From an uncultured Clostridia bacterium (lineage in GTDB: Bacteria; Bacillota; Clostridia; TANB77; CAG-508), in assembly GCA_944390365.1 (NCBI GenBank), contig CALXPW010000001.1, positions 57,907 to 121,906 on the forward strand: a stretch of 64,000 nt of DNA, given 5' to 3'. The position numbers and the translations under genes are program-made. The notes below the pieces were generated by a model. The model saw only the letters and a list, made by a program, of their open reading frames with translations. It had not been told where the DNA came from and ran no database searches. Shown here piece by piece: positions 3,956 through 57,637 of this stretch. The first letter of the stretch is position 1; each line of letters starts with the position of its first letter.

Positions 3956-5128
3956 TTATCCAAATAATCCTCTCTTTTTAACAGGTGGTTGTTCATTCAT
4001 AGTTTTTGCAAGTTCTACCATTAAATCTCTTTGCTCTTTAGTAAGTTTCTTTGGAACTTGAACAAGTACAGTAAATACAAAGTTTCCTTGTGAGCCATTA
4101 TTTATATTCTTAAATCCTTTTCCTCGAATTGTAAACTTTGTTCCTGGCTGAGTTCCGTCTGGAATTCTATATATTTCCTTTGAGCCATCAACCATAGGTA
4201 TTTCCAAATCTGCTCCCAATGTAGCTTGTGTAAATGTTATTGGTACTTCACAAAGCACATCTTGACCTTTTCTTGTAAAGATGCTATGTCTTTTTATATG
4301 TATAGTTATATAAAGGTCTCCCTTGGCACCACCTTTTTCTCCTGGCTCTCCTTCGCATCTTAATACAATTGTTTGATTCTCATCAATACCTGCTGGAATC
4401 TTTACAGAAACACGCACTTGCTTTCTAACAATTCCTTTTCCCTTACACTCTACGCAAGGATCTGGAATAATTTCACCTGTTCCATTACAATTTGTACATG
4501 GTCTTACAGTTTGCATCTGTCCAAATATTGTTGTTTGTGTTTGCTTTATTTGACCAGTTCCATGGCACATTGAACACGTTTGCTTTTTAGTTCCAGGTCT
4601 TGCTCCTTCTCCATGACAAGTTGGGCAAGTTTCATTTCTTGTTAAATTTATCTGCTTTTCTGTTCCTAAAAAAGATTCTTCAAATGTAATATCCAAATTT
4701 GCTCTTAAATCAGCTCCCTGTTTTGGTCCGTTATTATGTCTAGTATTACTTCTTCCACCAAAGCCACCACTGAAAAATGAAGAGAAGATATCTCCTAAGT
4801 CGCCAAAATCACCAAATCCGTCAAATCCTCCTGAAGAGGAATATGAATAATAACCATTTCCTCCACCAAAAGGACCACCAGCTCCTCCTCCAAATCCTTG
4901 GCTTGGATCTGCTGTTCCAAATTGATCATACATTTTTCTTTTTTCAGGATTAGATAATACTTCATAAGCCTCATTTACTTCTTTAAACTTTGCCTCTGCT
5001 TCTTTTTTATTGTCTGGATTAGCATCTGGGTGATATTTTTTAGCAAGCTTTCTATATGCCTTTTTTAGTTCCTCATCGCTTACGTTTTTATCTACTCCCA
5101 ATATTTCATAATAATCCTTATTTGCCAT
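3956..5128 (-). CDS. dnaJ: Molecular chaperone DnaJ
   Basis: J-domain (YYEILGV...HPD), G/F-rich region and four CxxCxGxG zinc-finger repeats. The true start MANKDYY is at 5128 with a GGAGAG RBS; the ORF-track start at 5188 is an extension. Confidence 0.9.
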
Positions 5129-17924: not shown

Positions 17925-18073
17925 GCAAAGGATGTATATTTTAATTTTTTATTGGAGTGCTTAAGGTGGGGACCGACAAGTTTACAAACTGTTAAACGAA
18001 ACGCAAGTGAAGTTTTTACAGTTTGTACGCAGTTGGGGGCCGGAAATAAAAAATTAAAATATACATCCTTTGC
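17925..18073 (+). repeat. Palindromic repeat family 1, copy A (MITE-like, ~150 bp: diverged ~30-bp TIRs plus a conserved core)
   Basis: Left end GCAAAGGATGTATATTTTAATTTTTTATTGG, right end CCGGAAATAAAAAATTAAAATATACATCCTTTGC. Core GAGTGCTTAAGGTGGGGACCGACAAGTTTACAAACTGT-loop-ACAGTTTGTACGCAGTTGGGGGCCG. This core is shared with copies at 31141, 38123, 49543 and 57433. Confidence 0.85.
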
Positions 18074-24558: not shown

Positions 24559-24864
24559 TCTTTTACACCTCCTCATGGATATATAACCTATGAACTAGTC
24601 ATAAGTAAGGATTAAAAAATAGCAACGCTATTTTTTTAACGCTACTATTCTATCATCATTTTATAAAAAAATCAAGTATAATTTGGTAAATTTACATAAT
24701 CTTTTTTCTCTGAGTTGACACATTTTCAAAAATATAGTAATATACTATCTATAACTTTAAGAATAGCTTTACAAATAATAAAAATTTATAAAGAGAGGAG
24801 TTATCATTTTTTAACCAGAATTATATAAATATAGTAATTGTTTAAATAGATTTGGTTATTGTTT

Positions 24865-25050
24865 TAGCGCCTGGACATAGGGTATTTCTTTTAGTTTTAA
24901 CTAAAAATTTATTAAATTCACTATGTTGACGAGGTAGAGGCTTATCGAAAGATTCGGCGGATGGTCTCTTGGTACTAGATTACTACCACAAATATTAGTT
25001 AAAGCCTTGCAGTGATGCAAGTATACAAAGCTAATAGAGTAGTCTTTATT
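24865..25050 (+). ncRNA. glmS ribozyme: glmS ribozyme (GlcN6P-dependent self-cleaving riboswitch)
   Basis: A cleavage-site motif A|GCGCC is at 24865. The conserved core GTTGACGAGG-tAGAGG-CTTATCGAAAGATTCGGCGGATGGTCTC matches the B. subtilis glmS ribozyme core. It lies immediately upstream of glmS. Boundaries are approximate. Confidence 0.8.
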
Positions 25051-27060: not shown

Positions 27061-27111
27061 AAGTTTTACATTTGTAATTATGTATATTTTTATGATTTAT
27101 AATAAAAGAAT

Positions 27112-27454
27112 TTAATTAAATAATTGATTGAAATAATTAAAAATTTCTTTTTTATGTACTTTAAAAAAATTAGTCTTATCTTGCCTTACATTAAAAATAT
27201 ATCTGATATAAATAATATTTTCTTCTTCTAGAATAAAATAAATGATTCTAAACTTTTCGCAAATTCGTTCTCGATAACGTTTATCAGGTATTTCAAGAAC
27301 GTATCTACCAATATACGGAAAATCTTGTAGCTCCTCAATATATGAACGAATTTTTTTATAAAATTCTAATTGCATAACTCAGTGATATTTTCGAATTATA
27401 GTCAAATAATTCTAATAAATCACTTCTAGCTCTTTGCGTTATTATAACTTTCAT
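27112..27454 (-). pseudogene. RelE/ParE-family type II toxin disrupted by a frameshift
   Basis: The 32-codon N-terminal frame (MKVIITQRARSDLLELFDYNSKISLSYAIRIL*, start 27454, overlapping the antitoxin stop by ~29 nt) shifts by +1 into the 87-codon ORF. That ORF carries the RelE/ParE core (KKIRSYIEELQDFPYIGRYVLEIPDKRYRERICEKFRIIYFILEEENIIYIRYI). Confidence 0.55.
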
Positions 27455-27623
27455 ATACCTCCTCCATTTCAGCTTTTACTTCGTCTAATGTATATACCCT
27501 ACCATTTTTTATATCATCTTCACTTTCTTGGAGTTTTGCAAAAAATACTAAATTATATATAATATCATATAGAGTATTTTCTTTTGTGTTAATTTGATTT
27601 AAAGTTTTTTTCATAAAATCCAT
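27426..27623 (-). CDS. RelB/DinJ-like antitoxin (RHH-type)
   Basis: 65 aa ending in the RelB-like GRVYTLDEVKAEM. AAAGGAGG lies 9 nt upstream. The 3' end overlaps the toxin start, which is the classic type II TA arrangement. Confidence 0.5.
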   Translation of the reverse strand: MDFMKKTLNQINTKENTLYDIIYNLVFFAKLQESEDDIKNGRVYTLDEVKAEMEEVYESYNNAKS

Positions 27624-27639
27624 TTATATAAACCTCCTT

Positions 27640-27852
27640 TTAATTTGGCTTTTTGTCTTCAAGCATCTCTTTTAATGTTTCATAGTTCAAATGCTTATCA
27701 GTGCCTGGAATAATAGTTGTTTCATCTTCTCCATATCTTTTTATATATTCCATCATTAGTTTAAATACCATTTCTGTTGGCTTTAAGCCATCAAAATAAT
27801 CATCAGGTACAGAATTAACAATATCTATCATTCTCTGCTTTACATTTGGCAT
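27640..27852 (-). CDS. Hypothetical 70-aa protein packed tightly upstream of the TA pair
   Basis: The ORF ends 16 nt before the antitoxin start. No family recognised. Confidence 0.35.
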   Translation of the reverse strand: MPNVKQRMIDIVNSVPDDYFDGLKPTEMVFKLMMEYIKRYGEDETTIIPGTDKHLNYETLKEMLEDKKPN

Positions 27853-27880
27853 ATTTTCTGGCTCCTTTCTTTAAAATATG

Positions 27881-28192
27881 TTAATAGTATACCATAAAAA
27901 AATTTAAATTACTACAATTTACCCGTAAAATTATTTTTAAAATTATAAGTAATAGTGCCCCTGGTAATCCCAATAATCCCACAAGTACAGATGTTAATAT
28001 ATTCAATCCAATATGAAAGCCAAAATTTGCACCAATTAAATTTATAATAAATATACACACGCCACCAAGAACGGAGTTAAATACCAATTTTAATATGCTT
28101 TTTAGTGGCCATATAAATATTTTTCCTAATATAAATAAAACGATTATACAAGTTAAAATAGTTATAACTGAATTAAAGTCCAATTTAATCAC
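27881..28192 (-). CDS. bofA: Pro-sigma-K processing inhibitor BofA
   Basis: Two TM helices and the C-terminal LGLPGALLLIILK, which is typical of BofA (compare LGIPGIAALVVIK). The neighbouring YaaL-like gene matches B. subtilis yaaL-bofA synteny. Confidence 0.6.
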   Translation of the reverse strand: MIKLDFNSVITILTCIIVLFILGKIFIWPLKSILKLVFNSVLGGVCIFIINLIGANFGFHIGLNILTSVLVGLLGLPGALLLIILKIILRVNCSNLNFFMVYY

Positions 28193-28242
28193 CTCTTTAA
28201 ATGCTCTTACTTATTTTTATGATTAAATTTGGACAAATATTA

Positions 28243-28518: not shown

Positions 28519-28637
28519 AGGCTACCTCCATTATTTATAAACTAATTATTACCATTATATGCAGTTACTGTAAAATTATTCGTCCTTTATTGCTAAATTA
28601 AGTGTATTATGTGTTCTGAATTTTATATTTTTGCAAT

Positions 28638-28829
28638 AGGTTAGAGTAAACTTCTAAAAAAAGTATTTCAAATATGTCGGTCCAGCTACTTTCTCGTAGA
28701 AATTCTAAATTGATTTTATGGCACCCTTCCATCAGAGATGAACTCTTTCCATAAAATCAATCGAGAATTTCTAACTCAAAGTACTCTCCATTCCATATTT
28801 TCATACTTTTTTTATAAGTCCACTCTAAC
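28638..28829. repeat. Palindromic repeat family 2, copy 1 (192-bp long-hairpin element)
   Basis: The ends GGTTAGAGTAAACTTCTAAAAAAAGTATTTCAAATATG and CATATTTTCATACTTTTTTTATAAGTCCACTCTAACC form an inverted repeat. An inner inverted repeat GTAGAAATTCTAAATTGATTTTATGG / CCATAAAATCAATCGAGAATTTCTAAC surrounds a ~27-nt centre. The second copy is at 51764..51954, ~95% identical. Confidence 0.85.
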
Positions 28830-29054
28830 CTAAATCAAATAAAATTTTAGCTTATTTAGAACACATAATATACTAATTTAGCAATAATTTTACCCCTTGT
28901 ACCAAATTTTCTTGATTTTTCCATAAAAAAATGATACTATACTTAAGTATAAAGATTGTATAACAATAATAAATAAAATAATTAACTATAATACTTACAT
29001 TATAATTTTTAGAAAATAATTTTGAGCATTTAATTGCTCAGGTTGGAGGTTTAT

Positions 29055-31104: not shown

Positions 31105-31140
31105 TTCTTAATTTGTTGTATTATGTAAGTCTTATAGCGA

Positions 31141-31279
31141 GCAAAGTAGGCTTAAAATTTTTCTTTGAGTGCTTAGGGTTGGCACCAAAAAGCATACAAA
31201 GTGTTTAACGAACGTTAGTGAGTTAATACAATTTGTGCGATGTTGGGGGCCGAAAAGAAAAATTTTAAGCCTACTTTGC
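31141..31279 (+). repeat. Palindromic repeat family 1, copy B (more diverged)
   Basis: TIRs GCAAAGTAGGCTTAAAATTTTTCTTTG / CAAAGAAAAATTTTAAGCCTACTTTGC. Degenerate core GAGTGCTTAGGGTTGGCACC...ACAATTTGTGCGATGTTGGGGGCCG. Confidence 0.75.
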
Positions 31280-31329
31280 TTGTTTAGTATATTTTTTATG
31301 TAAATTTATTGACTTTACCAGCTTTTTGT

Positions 31330-34598: not shown

Positions 34599-34617
34599 AA
34601 TCTATATAGTAAATGAA

Positions 34618-34641
34618 AAGAGGCTACTTAAGTAGCCTCTT
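34618..34641. terminator. Perfect palindrome AAGAGGCTACTT/AAGTAGCCTCTT after the DUF3800 gene (possible bidirectional terminator)
   Basis: A 24-bp perfect inverted repeat. The T-tract is weak on the plus strand and modest on the minus strand. Confidence 0.4.
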
Positions 34642-34825
34642 CCCAACTAGACTGACGTACTTAACATACGCTTAATTATTTAAAATCAGTATCTAGCTAT
34701 CGACCGAACAAAGGTATATTGCCTTCTGGTATAATAATTGTAACATCTTGAGAAAAAAATGTCAACAATTATATCTTTATTTTATTCAAAAAATGAAAAA
34801 ATATTCTTCTACTACAACAAAAATT

Positions 34826-38091: not shown

Positions 38092-38122
38092 TTTTTTATC
38101 ATCCCTTTCTACAAAAAATTTA

Positions 38123-38272
38123 GCAAATAATGTATGTTTAAAATTTTTATTGGAGTTCTTAAGGTGGGGACCGACAAGTTTACAAACTGTAAAATTAAGC
38201 GTTAGCGAAAATTTATACAGTTTGTACGTAGTTGGGGGCCGACAATAAAAATTTAAAACATACATTATTTGC
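38123..38272 (+). repeat. Palindromic repeat family 1, copy C
   Basis: TIRs GCAAATAATGTATGTTTAAAATTTTTATTGG / CCGACAATAAAAATTTAAAACATACATTATTTGC. Core GAGTTCTTAAGGTGGGGACCGACAAGTTTACAAACTGT...ACAGTTTGTACGTAGTTGGGGGCCG. Confidence 0.85.
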
Positions 38273-38286
38273 TTTTTTTATAAATA

Positions 38287-49494: not shown

Positions 49495-49542
49495 AAAATC
49501 ATCAGCCTCCTATAATTTTATTATATGATGGAGGTTCTATTT

Positions 49543-49695
49543 AAGACCGGGCAAAGTATGTATTTTTTACTTTTGGTTGAAGTTCTTAAGGTGGGGACCG
49601 ACAAGCTTACAAACTGTAAAACGAAGTTTGTACAGTTTGTGCGATGTTGGGGGAACGTAAACCAAAAGTAAAAAATACATACTTTGCCCGGTCTT
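49543..49695 (+). repeat. Palindromic repeat family 1, copy D (perfect 36-bp TIRs, shortened loop)
   Basis: AAGACCGGGCAAAGTATGTATTTTTTACTTTTGGTT and its exact reverse complement flank the core GAAGTTCTTAAGGTGGGGACCGACAAGCTTACAAACTGT...ACAGTTTGTGCGATGTTGGGGGAACG. Confidence 0.85.
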
Positions 49696-49709
49696 GATTA
49701 AAATAGATA

Positions 49710-51574: not shown

Positions 51575-51763
51575 TCGTTATCTCCTCCTATGCGTGTGAC
51601 TTGTGTGTCAGATTACTCATTATCTACGTCACATTTTCAAACAATATTGTAAAACAAATATGGGAAAATGTCTAGTAGTATATTTTATATTATGTGCTTT
51701 ATTTGTTACAATATAATGATTTTATGCTATATAATTTAAATAATTCTTGTTATCTGTTTATAT

Positions 51764-51954
51764 GGGTAGAGTAAACTTCTAAAAAAAGTATTTCAAATAT
51801 GTCGGTCCAGCTACTTTTTCGTAGAAATTCTAGAATAATTTTATGGCACCCTTCCATCAGAGATGAACTCTTTCCATAAAATTATTCTAGAATCTCTAAC
51901 TCAAAGTACTTTCCATTCCATATTTTCATACTTTTTTATAAGCCCACTCTACCC
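51764..51954. repeat. Palindromic repeat family 2, copy 2
   Basis: About 95% identical to 28638..28829. The differences between copies are paired compensatory changes in both stems. Confidence 0.85.
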
Positions 51955-52074
51955 TAGTTAGAAAATGCTTATTTAAATTATAAAGCATAAAACCATTATA
52001 TTGTAATCTTCACTTTTAATAAGTTAGTTTGCTTTTATATAAAGTTGTAAATTGTAATAGCAAAGCAGAAAACT

Positions 52075-52552: not shown

Positions 52553-52825
52553 GTTTTTTTACCTCCTGTTTCAGTAGGTTGTTTTTACTAAGTGGAACTT
52601 TTCCACTTAGTGTCGTACTGAATGCACTTTCGCATTCAACTATATTATACCATAAATTGGAAAAAATATCAAAAAGAAAAAAGGCTCTAGCAGCGATAAA
52701 GAGTAAATTTTCTTTTTTTGCTTATGATTTACTATATATTATAAATTATTTTACCATATATTGGTAAATAAAATCTTTTTTTACATAAAATACCCCTTAC
52801 CCCAAAATTTTGAGGTTTTCTATCA

Positions 52826-52886
52826 GCAATGAAGAGTAAAAATTCTTCTCTTTTATTGCGAAGAATTTTTACTCTTCATTGCTATA
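52826..52886. repeat. Perfect 25-bp inverted repeat (CAGCAATGAAGAGTAAAAATTCTTC / GAAGAATTTTTACTCTTCATTGCTG) with an 11-nt loop
   Basis: Seen directly in the sequence. It is intergenic, between the two secreted-protein genes. Confidence 0.8.
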
Positions 52887-57363: not shown

Positions 57364-57432
57364 TGTTAATTCCTCCTCTTTTCGCAAAAGGGGACGGGTT
57401 TATTTTGTAAAAAGACTATTTTATCTTTTTAT

Positions 57433-57578
57433 AAAATTATATGTATTTTATTTTTTGTCGGAGTGCTTAAGGTGGGGACCGACAAGTTTACAAACTGTTG
57501 AACTGAATGTTAGTGAAGTTTATACAGTTTGTACGATGTTGGGGGCCGGAGACCAAAAAGAAAATACATATAATTTTG
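57433..57578 (+). repeat. Palindromic repeat family 1, copy E, nested inside an outer perfect 28-bp inverted repeat (57384..57411 / 57601..57627)
   Basis: Core GAGTGCTTAAGGTGGGGACCGACAAGTTTACAAACTGT...ACAGTTTGTACGATGTTGGGGGCCG. Outer arms GCAAAAGGGGACGGGTTTATTTTGTAAA / TTACAAAATAAACCCGTCCCCTTTTGC. Confidence 0.85.
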
Positions 57579-57637
57579 AAATATAAAACAAATCTGATAT
57601 TTACAAAATAAACCCGTCCCCTTTTGCAAATTTTCTA

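Follow-up and report, generated by a model that had tools for sequence, protein, structure and literature searches.

The window analysed here, a stretch of 64,000 nucleotides from an uncultured Clostridia bacterium, carries two copies of a palindromic element. Copy 1 lies in the spacer between a DUF2508 gene and serS, and copy 2 in the spacer upstream of a pyrophosphatase (PPase) gene; the neighbours of both are housekeeping genes of unrelated functions. The original prediction had placed two copies of a palindrome at 28638 and 51764, and our analysis confirmed these positions, with conserved cores at 28638-28830 and 51763-51955. The locus-specific inverted repeats described at their flanks also exist: in copy 1 they match at 32 of 35 positions, and in copy 2 they are complementary at 36 of 38 positions (95%). 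The features of the two copies are as follows:

28584-28905: whole gained or lost block of copy 1, 322 bp, consisting of arm, spacer, core, spacer, arm and an 18-nt tail (28888-28905)
28587-28621: left outer arm of copy 1, within the inserted block, pairs with 28854-28887
28638-28830, minus strand (better fold): conserved palindromic core of copy 1, the 192-bp element of the original prediction
28707-28714: left half of the variable box of copy 1, pairs with 28756-28763
28720-28750, minus strand: invariant apical region of copy 1, which reads GGAAAGAGUUCAUCUCUGAUGGAAGGGUGCC and contains the small hairpin CAUC-UCU-GAUG
28756-28763: right half of the variable box of copy 1, pairs with 28707-28714
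28854-28887: right outer arm of copy 1, within the inserted block, pairs with 28587-28621
51682-52006: whole gained or lost block of copy 2, 325 bp, consisting of a 24-nt tail (51682-51705), arm, spacer, core, spacer and arm
51706-51743: left outer arm of copy 2, 38 nt, pairs with 51969-52006
51763-51955, minus strand (by fold energies): conserved palindromic core of copy 2
51845-51875, minus strand: invariant apical region of copy 2
51969-52006: right outer arm of copy 2, pairs with 51706-51743

Each copy folds into a single long hairpin, in which an irregular middle separates the outer from the inner stem and a 31-nt apical region (GGCACCCTTCCATCAGAGATGAACTCTTTCC) caps the latter. The long hairpin anticipated for each copy was borne out when both were folded, as none of 200 shuffles folded as stably as either of them (z -11.1 to -14.6). 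The minimum free energy of the copy 1 core was -80.3 kcal/mol on the minus strand vs. -66.0 kcal/mol on the plus strand, with 6 and 0 G.U pairs, respectively, and that of the copy 2 core was -83.2 vs. -62.3 kcal/mol, with 7 and 0 G.U pairs. The two cores differ at 14 of 194 positions. They are closely alike, as had been noticed, but their computed identity is about 93%, not the ~95% given at first. The claim that almost every difference between them is paired was overstated: reciprocal changes account for six of the 14, in three pairs (28641/28828, 28710/28760, 28712/28758), 2 are mismatches of copy 1 that become pairs in copy 2, another 2 (28769 and 28819) are wobble-compatible only on the minus strand, and the rest are 2 in loops, 1 indel and 1 at the edge.

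The element belongs to a larger family. An exact 22-mer from the apex matched 33 loci in species-representative genomes, all of them metagenome-assembled genomes (MAGs) of uncultured Clostridia, with 14 copies in one MAG and 11 in another, and a 19-mer search of metagenome contigs added 9 more true members and 3 chance matches. The search for further copies, which had been proposed together with the original description, thus yielded 42 of them beyond the window pair, in Clostridia MAGs and metagenomes. All copies were ascertained through the exact apex pattern, and every sequence is a metagenome assembly. No further diverged copy was detected in the window by profile search. A phage or plasmid origin was rejected, as viral contigs (searched with two patterns), PLSDB plasmids and phage records contained no match to the element. 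Every copy was intergenic, mostly located between tandem genes, and the orientation of the copies relative to the neighbouring genes was about 50:50. Close relatives share the entire 192-bp core at ~95% conservation. Distant MAG lineages retain just its apical 110-130 nt, with a lower stem made of unrelated yet self-complementary sequence. Similarity between copies falls sharply at the core boundary, from ~95% inside to ~45% outside. The element is an intergenic palindromic repeat of uncultured gut Clostridia, previously undescribed. The MITE-like nature considered for it at the outset holds in substance: the element is multi-copy and intergenic, occurs in either orientation, and is missing at orthologous sites of sister lineages.

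Comparison with such sites revealed that the block including the arms is present or absent as a unit. In three sister contigs (L066, L067 and L068), in which SerS is 97% identical to that of the window and the flanks are 90% identical, the DUF2508-serS spacer lacks copy 1, which is missing as a single 322-bp block. With junctions marked by a slash, the empty site reads ...GTAAAATTATGCGT/TTTTTCTTGATTT, and the filled site reads ...GTAAAATTATTCGT/CCTTTATTGC...GTACCAAA/TTTTCTTGATTT. Similarly, the orthologous spacer upstream of the PPase gene in sister contig L070 (PPase 96% identical) is devoid of the 325-bp block of copy 2, and its flanks align on both sides of the missing block. These two pairs make up the whole filled/empty comparison. 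Since both empty sites miss the arms together with the core, the flanking inverted repeats belong to the element and are not separate from it, as they had been taken to be. For the same reason, a pre-existing hairpin target, e.g., a terminator, was rejected for both copies.

Variable arms, and not the conserved termini of the core (GGTTAGAG/CTCTAACC), lie at the ends of the blocks, and both blocks carry an unpaired tail of 18-24 nt on one side only. No target-site duplication was visible at either filled/empty junction. The dinucleotide TA follows the core in 16 of 18 copies and precedes it in 7 of 18; this asymmetry argues for TA belonging to the element and against a TA target duplication as in IS630/mariner. 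The origin of the arms by inverted duplication of a target flank (snap-back synthesis) appeared to be marginal, as the empty site allows for at most 6-11 nt of it. One hint in this direction is an 11-nt match in copy 1 (GTAAAATTATT/AATAATTTTAC), and the other, toward outward growth of a palindrome by snap-back synthesis, comes from a third palindromic family (L045 vs. L046, see below). The sister sites could have never been occupied, or could have lost the palindrome by precise deletion. At the serS site, the gain in the window lineage appears to be favoured, because more distant relatives are either empty there or carry the third palindromic family (L046 vs. L045). Three other candidates for site comparisons were discarded: the indels in L005/L020 and L014/L033, considered as extra filled/empty pairs, are not palindromic elements; P0243, a member of the SerS cluster, has a different synteny and was uninformative; and L071, considered as an empty site, differs in gene order.

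Inversions of the sequence between the arms have occurred in some lineages. At 3 of 10 orthologous loci (L004 vs. L026, L005 vs. L020 and L014 vs. L033), the arm-bounded segment differs in orientation between genomes that are otherwise collinear at ~95% identity, third genomes included. The inverted segment, of 279-308 bp, aligns at 95-99% only when flipped, while its flanks stay collinear, and flipping it in silico gave a near-perfect alignment that extended through the non-palindromic spacers. At two of the three loci, the polarity of the inversion was given by a third genome. The final k-mer of an assembly is usually longer than the arms at the inverted loci (29-42 bp). As the arms are shorter than that, and as each state was found in independent samples, an assembly artefact is an unlikely source of the inversions. 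Among 11 contigs of the window species from different samples, assigned to it by identical flanking proteins, both copies were unchanged and in one orientation, and no inversion was found in these assemblies at either copy or at two loci of another repeat family, F1 (see below). The lack of inversion within the window species indicates that these events are rare, and rare events are better explained by general recombination or by template switching between the arms than by a dedicated fast switch.

The original prediction had compared the element with the 6S RNAs of Firmicutes, and the length of ~190 nt, the two copies in the window and the long irregular hairpin with an open middle do resemble a pair of 6S RNA paralogues, such as bsrA and bsrB of B. 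subtilis. In 6S RNA, a closing stem, a large central bubble and a terminal stem mimic an open promoter and bind RNA polymerase; the middle region of the predicted fold of the element is irregular. However, the scan of the whole window with Rfam at gathering score gave no match of the element to 6S or any other relevant family and returned only a glmS ribozyme, two tRNAs and a DUF3800-I RNA. When region 28560-28910 was scanned at E<=10, 6S was not among the matches, which were only spurious plant and animal miRNA-precursor hairpin models. The two-copy number holds within this window but not for the family, which has at least 14 copies in one related MAG. A dispersed repeat that is invertible, polymorphic in its insertion and missing at the orthologous sites of sister lineages does not behave like a gene of one or two copies. 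The idea of a 6S pair is refuted for practical purposes, and we consider it extremely improbable; in annotation, long hairpins in MAGs of gut Clostridia should not be called 6S or sRNA genes by their shape alone. Of the Rfam matches elsewhere in the window, the glmS ribozyme lies upstream of glmS (24855-25046, plus strand, 87 bits), and the DUF3800-I RNA motif lies at 34607-34737 (minus strand, 64.8 bits), both above their gathering scores.

The outer arms are 27-44 bp long across copies. Within a copy, the two arms pair almost perfectly (at best, in all 42 of 42 positions), whereas those of different copies are highly dissimilar, with a weak consensus between loci at most and no relation at several of them. 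The weak family consensus of arms and spacers reads AATAATGGTTTTATAyTTTACAATT..., and no solo "pads" of the arm consensus were found in the window at up to 3 mismatches. The distance between arm and core is constant, at 11-28 nt. Within a locus, the arms change in concert. At orthologous locus A, a comparison of L026 with L025 showed about 10 clustered substitutions and one indel of 2 nt in the left arm, all of them mirrored in the right arm, while the core differs by ~2% and the coding flanks by ~7-10%. The mirrored indels and the perfect Watson-Crick complementarity point to the evolution of the arms by DNA-level arm-to-arm conversion rather than by compensation at the RNA level. Gene conversion between arms, one of two alternatives that had been named for the paired multi-base changes, is supported in substance, as orthologous loci showed such changes, indels included, in the two arms alike.

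Patches of the apical stem are also exchanged between copies. The variable box, 8 bp in the apical stem, occurs in 17 variants among 30 distinct copies, nearly all of them still paired. In strain L037 of the window species, both halves of the copy 1 box are swapped jointly for a variant present in other copies; this swap is one conversion tract across the 60-nt apex. The orthologous copies at L018 1192-1602 and L022 7384-7794 match at 100% as far as the apex, across the left flank and the left core half, whereas past this point their identity drops to ~88% and the right spacers differ as well, which indicates a recombination or conversion breakpoint within the apical loop. Such exchanges affect the reading of covariation. 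The consensus fold showed changes on both sides in 31 of 54 pairs, so the covariation check gave a positive count, but because paired changes arrive as single conversion tracts, this count overstates the number of independent events. The 31 pairs can be neither all independent nor a proof of RNA: as conversion itself yields paired changes, covariation alone does not prove an RNA structure here. More generally, "compensatory" substitutions in a palindrome can stem from DNA-level conversion, with arms swapped in one tract and indels mirrored, and the asymmetry between G.U and A.C pairs is a more discriminating test.

All 31 full copies folded better on the minus strand, by 5-23 kcal/mol. In the consensus structure, 109 cells were G.U and 9 were A.C on this strand, in 20 and 9 pair columns, respectively, whereas in the arms and spacers the bias was weak (41 vs. 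21 cells). Symmetric DNA-level conversion would not be a source of such asymmetry, and strand-specific mutation bias should cancel out, since the copies sit in both genomic orientations. No variation of the apex was found among 30 distinct copies, which come from several distant MAG lineages; this conservation is partly a matter of ascertainment, because the copies were found through the exact apex pattern, which covers 22 of the 31 nt. Given the asymmetry in the core and its weakness in the arms and spacers, the constraint seems to act on the core, and most of all on its invariant apex, in the form of a single strand of one polarity, either RNA or ssDNA. Thus, the proposed selection on secondary structure is partly supported by the minus-strand wobble bias and the apex invariance. 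Some of the "compensatory" changes are single conversions. In ssDNA hairpins, G.T is the mismatch that is best tolerated, so the strand bias does not separate RNA from ssDNA. Neither within the element nor beside it did a consensus scan detect a conserved promoter or terminator, and the cores contained no promoter-like site. As the element also has no preferred orientation to host transcription, the evidence is somewhat against a function as co-transcribed RNA. It is compatible with a strand-specific ssDNA intermediate of the kind used by REP/REPIN and IS200/IS605-type systems (PMC3116915).

The window contains another family of arm-bounded repeats, F1, with five copies:

17925-18073, 31140-31280, 38122-38273, 49535-49703 and 57433-57577: copies of the F1 repeat

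The F1 core, of ~85 nt (GGAGTGCTTAAGGTGGGGACCGAC...GTTGGGGGCCGG), is unrelated to that of the 192-bp element and is directly abutted by perfect, locus-variable arms of 23-51 bp that begin with GCAAAG. F1 had no Rfam match and occurs in related MAGs too. Its copy at 17925 folds better on the plus strand (-60 vs. -49 kcal/mol). The F1 core at 49579-49659 is inverted relative to sister contig L070 (2257-2472), with a score of 75 of 81 when inverted vs. 18 when collinear, and a change in the inner arm is mirrored there (CTTTTGGTT/AACCAAAAG vs. CTTTGGGTT/AACCCAAAG). At the site that corresponds to the F1 copy at 31140-31280, contig L066 (~4650-4700) has just GTAAAGTA-TTGC left, the outermost arm bases, which looks like a scar of hairpin-mediated internal deletion. 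Similarly, positions 52825-52883 of the window form a perfect hairpin whose 24-bp arms (AGCAATGAAG...) enclose a loop of 11 nt, and which looks like a remnant of F1 that consists of arms only. Since F1 also flips, changes its arms in pairs and leaves scars, flipping, concerted arms and hairpin-mediated deletion are general to the arm-bounded elements described here. At three loci (window 57381-57630, L007 1055-1312 and L011 4709-4953), F1 is nested in a conserved outer palindrome (GCAAAAGGGGACGGG...CCCGTCCCCTTTTGC), so nested palindromes recur at unrelated loci.

We conclude that both copies are probably members of a dispersed non-coding palindromic family of ~320 bp, which occurs in uncultured, AT-rich gut Clostridia and is similar in kind to MITEs, REPINs and ERIC elements. 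From the outside in, its architecture comprises variable complementary arms, short degenerate spacers, the conserved 192-bp imperfect palindrome and the invariant 31-nt apex. The arms would be kept identical by DNA-level conversion from arm to arm, through recombination or template switching between the inverted repeats, and such events may occasionally resolve as an inversion; because the arms have a weak consensus only, a sequence-specific invertase would not need to be invoked. The core may be held by selection on the folded single strand, the minus strand of the window, which could be either an ssDNA intermediate of transposition or recognition, as in REP/REPIN and IS200/IS605-type systems, or an RNA hairpin. 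No autonomous partner, transposase or recombinase, was found in the loci examined, so a transposition mechanism is not demonstrated, and no second or partial element match adjoined an ORF in 45 loci. The similarity drop at the core boundary is not predicted by a single co-evolving unit and argues against it; the core could have spread later into older hairpin "pads", or could have been homogenised by conversion between copies. Additionally, the "empty" sites could be precise deletions of the palindrome rather than unoccupied targets, for which the F1 scar is a precedent.

Other explanations give the same features a different weight. The element could belong to a family of structured RNA genes or modules with the minus-strand hairpin as the functional product, which we regard as possible but unlikely. 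Its apex, with two AUGGAA motifs ~22 nt apart, would bind a protein or another RNA, its outer stems would need only to pair, e.g., as a stalk for RNase III processing, and the DNA-level features would be secondary. Such a product would account for the concentration of G.U pairs on the minus strand in every copy (109 vs. 9 cells), for the changes on both sides of 31 of 54 consensus pairs, and for an invariant apex above a lower stem that distant lineages replace with unrelated pairing sequence. However, G.T is tolerated in ssDNA hairpins, so the strand bias fits ssDNA, too, and single conversion tracts inflate the covariation counts; the perfect Watson-Crick arms with mirrored indels bear the mark of DNA conversion. 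Moreover, there is no conserved promoter or terminator in or beside the element, and its ~50:50 orientation to host genes, together with flips between sister genomes, means that a co-transcribed sense RNA is not maintained.

The inversions could alternatively be the work of a phase-variation switch (inverton), in which a site-specific recombinase flips the cassette and thereby changes the expression of the neighbouring genes. The cassette is bounded by inverted repeats and occurs in both orientations at 3 of 10 orthologous loci, F1, of the same architecture, flips too, and there is a precedent for dissimilar repeats, as in Clostridioides difficile a single recombinase, RecV, inverts switches of that kind. 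Nevertheless, we find such a switch improbable: both copies have the same orientation in 11 contigs of the window species, as have the two F1 loci, the consensus of the arms is weak, with several loci having unrelated arms, the cassette contains no promoter-like site, the neighbours are housekeeping genes of unrelated function, and flipping changes little in a cassette that is itself nearly palindromic. The abrupt similarity drop could also be explained by a nested structure, with arms and spacers forming an older, diverged hairpin repeat whose apex would be the specific insertion site of a younger mobile element, the 192-bp core. The weak family consensus retained by arms and spacers, the constant arm-core distance of 11-28 nt and the palindrome-in-palindrome arrangement of F1 (57381-57630, L007, L011) are in line with this. 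It is likewise improbable, though, as no arms-only pad of the family of the 192-bp element was found in the window, the TA counts (after 16 and before 7 of 18 cores) show no target duplication around the core, and pad and core are missing together at both empty sites.

A more far-reaching reading, which we consider rather doubtful, is that the element is a mobile invertible cassette for a structured single-stranded nucleic acid, with the apex as its functional module and the arms as an evolved device, and that it represents a new class of repeats. The apex, with its two AUGGAA motifs around a small minus-strand hairpin, could then be a candidate protein-binding RNA (CsrA-type sites are a guess) or, in a so far undescribed ssDNA transposition system, the hairpin that is recognised. 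If so, the self-homogenising arms would both protect the ends of the cassette and allow it to change its orientation to host transcription and replication, and together with F1 the element would define a new class of bacterial repeats in which the unit of selection is the arm-bounded hairpin and not conserved termini.

The MITE/REPIN-like family favoured here shares features with several known systems. Like a MITE (a non-autonomous element of the DDE type), the element is short, non-coding, multi-copy, intergenic and insertion-polymorphic; in contrast to MITEs, its block has no conserved terminal inverted repeats, since its ends are variable arms, and no direct target-site duplication at either junction. 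REPINs are also short, non-coding, intergenic, multi-copy palindromes in which a single strand folds as a long hairpin, often with compensatory changes across it, and their copies are inherited vertically over long periods. As in REP-RAYT systems, one particular strand folds, here the minus strand, on which all copies fold better. The putative excised REPIN intermediate is asymmetric, composed of a hairpin and a tail (PMC3116915), and the gained or lost blocks of the element, with their unpaired tail of 18-24 nt on one side, resemble it. However, in REPINs the ends (REPs) are conserved and the middle is variable, whereas in the element this is reversed, with an invariant apex and variable ends. 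The element is also three to four times longer, no RAYT gene was seen in the 64-kb window or in the loci of up to 8 kb, and REPINs have been described mainly in Proteobacteria, whereas the host of the element is an AT-rich Firmicute.

The ERIC/IRU, Correia (NEMIS), RUP and BOX families resemble the element in being imperfect intergenic palindromes of 100-200 bp, often in transcribed regions and in either orientation. In ERIC, the two orientations give RNA hairpins of different stability, due to G.U pairs. Unlike the element, these families have conserved termini, and Correia and RUP have a TA or other target duplication; the gain/loss unit of the element reaches past the conserved core into the variable arms and has no duplication. 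We know of no reports of evolutionary inversion or concerted arm evolution for the four families. Invertons such as cwpV and the flagellar switches of C. difficile are likewise segments of ~200-300 bp between inverted repeats of 20-40 bp, found in both orientations, but the element has no internal promoter and, in the assemblies, no mixed orientation within a species. Its repeats are not conserved between loci and, being dissimilar, offer no common recombinase motif, and what is flipped is a multi-copy near-palindromic repeat rather than a unique regulatory region. In large palindromes kept identical by gene conversion between their arms, such as the chloroplast inverted repeat and those of the human Y chromosome, arms also diverge between lineages while staying near-identical within a copy, and the spacer between them can flip; these span kilobases to megabases, whereas the arms of the element span tens of bp and the element is a dispersed repeat. 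With 6S RNA (bsrA/bsrB) it shares length and the overall shape of a long irregular hairpin, but it differs from it in matching no covariance model and in being multi-copy, insertion-polymorphic and invertible.

The element combines three features, an invariant apex, outer arms that change fast and in concert, and recurrent inversion of the whole cassette, which to our knowledge are not usually reported together for MITE-like repeats of bacteria. The same architecture is present in the unrelated F1, which suggests that small palindromic repeats of AT-rich Firmicute genomes may commonly be maintained and evolve in this way, and the family offers a tractable system for the study of palindrome maintenance in bacteria.

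Several other observations concern the vicinity of serS. The third palindromic family was found in the DUF2508-serS spacer of another species (L045/L048, 2233-2406), with a core GTCCTGCAACGG...CCCTGCGCGGAC and arms TAGGAGGCAAACTTGTTTAATAGTAT, and it is absent from L046/L047, which carry the empty allele. To its right, ~26 nt look like a diverged inverted left flank, and this left flank is single in the empty allele. In contig L069, with SerS 96% identical, serS has a 460-nt leader (2039-2500) with a T-box-like string, GGTGGTACCGCG; the T-box was seen by eye and scored below every Rfam gathering score, and the window species has no serS leader of this type. The stretch from glmS to the DUF2508 gene (window 27100-28200) varies among strains and species (L034-L039, L051-L053) and contains small ORFs that include a ParE toxin/RHH antitoxin pair and BofA.
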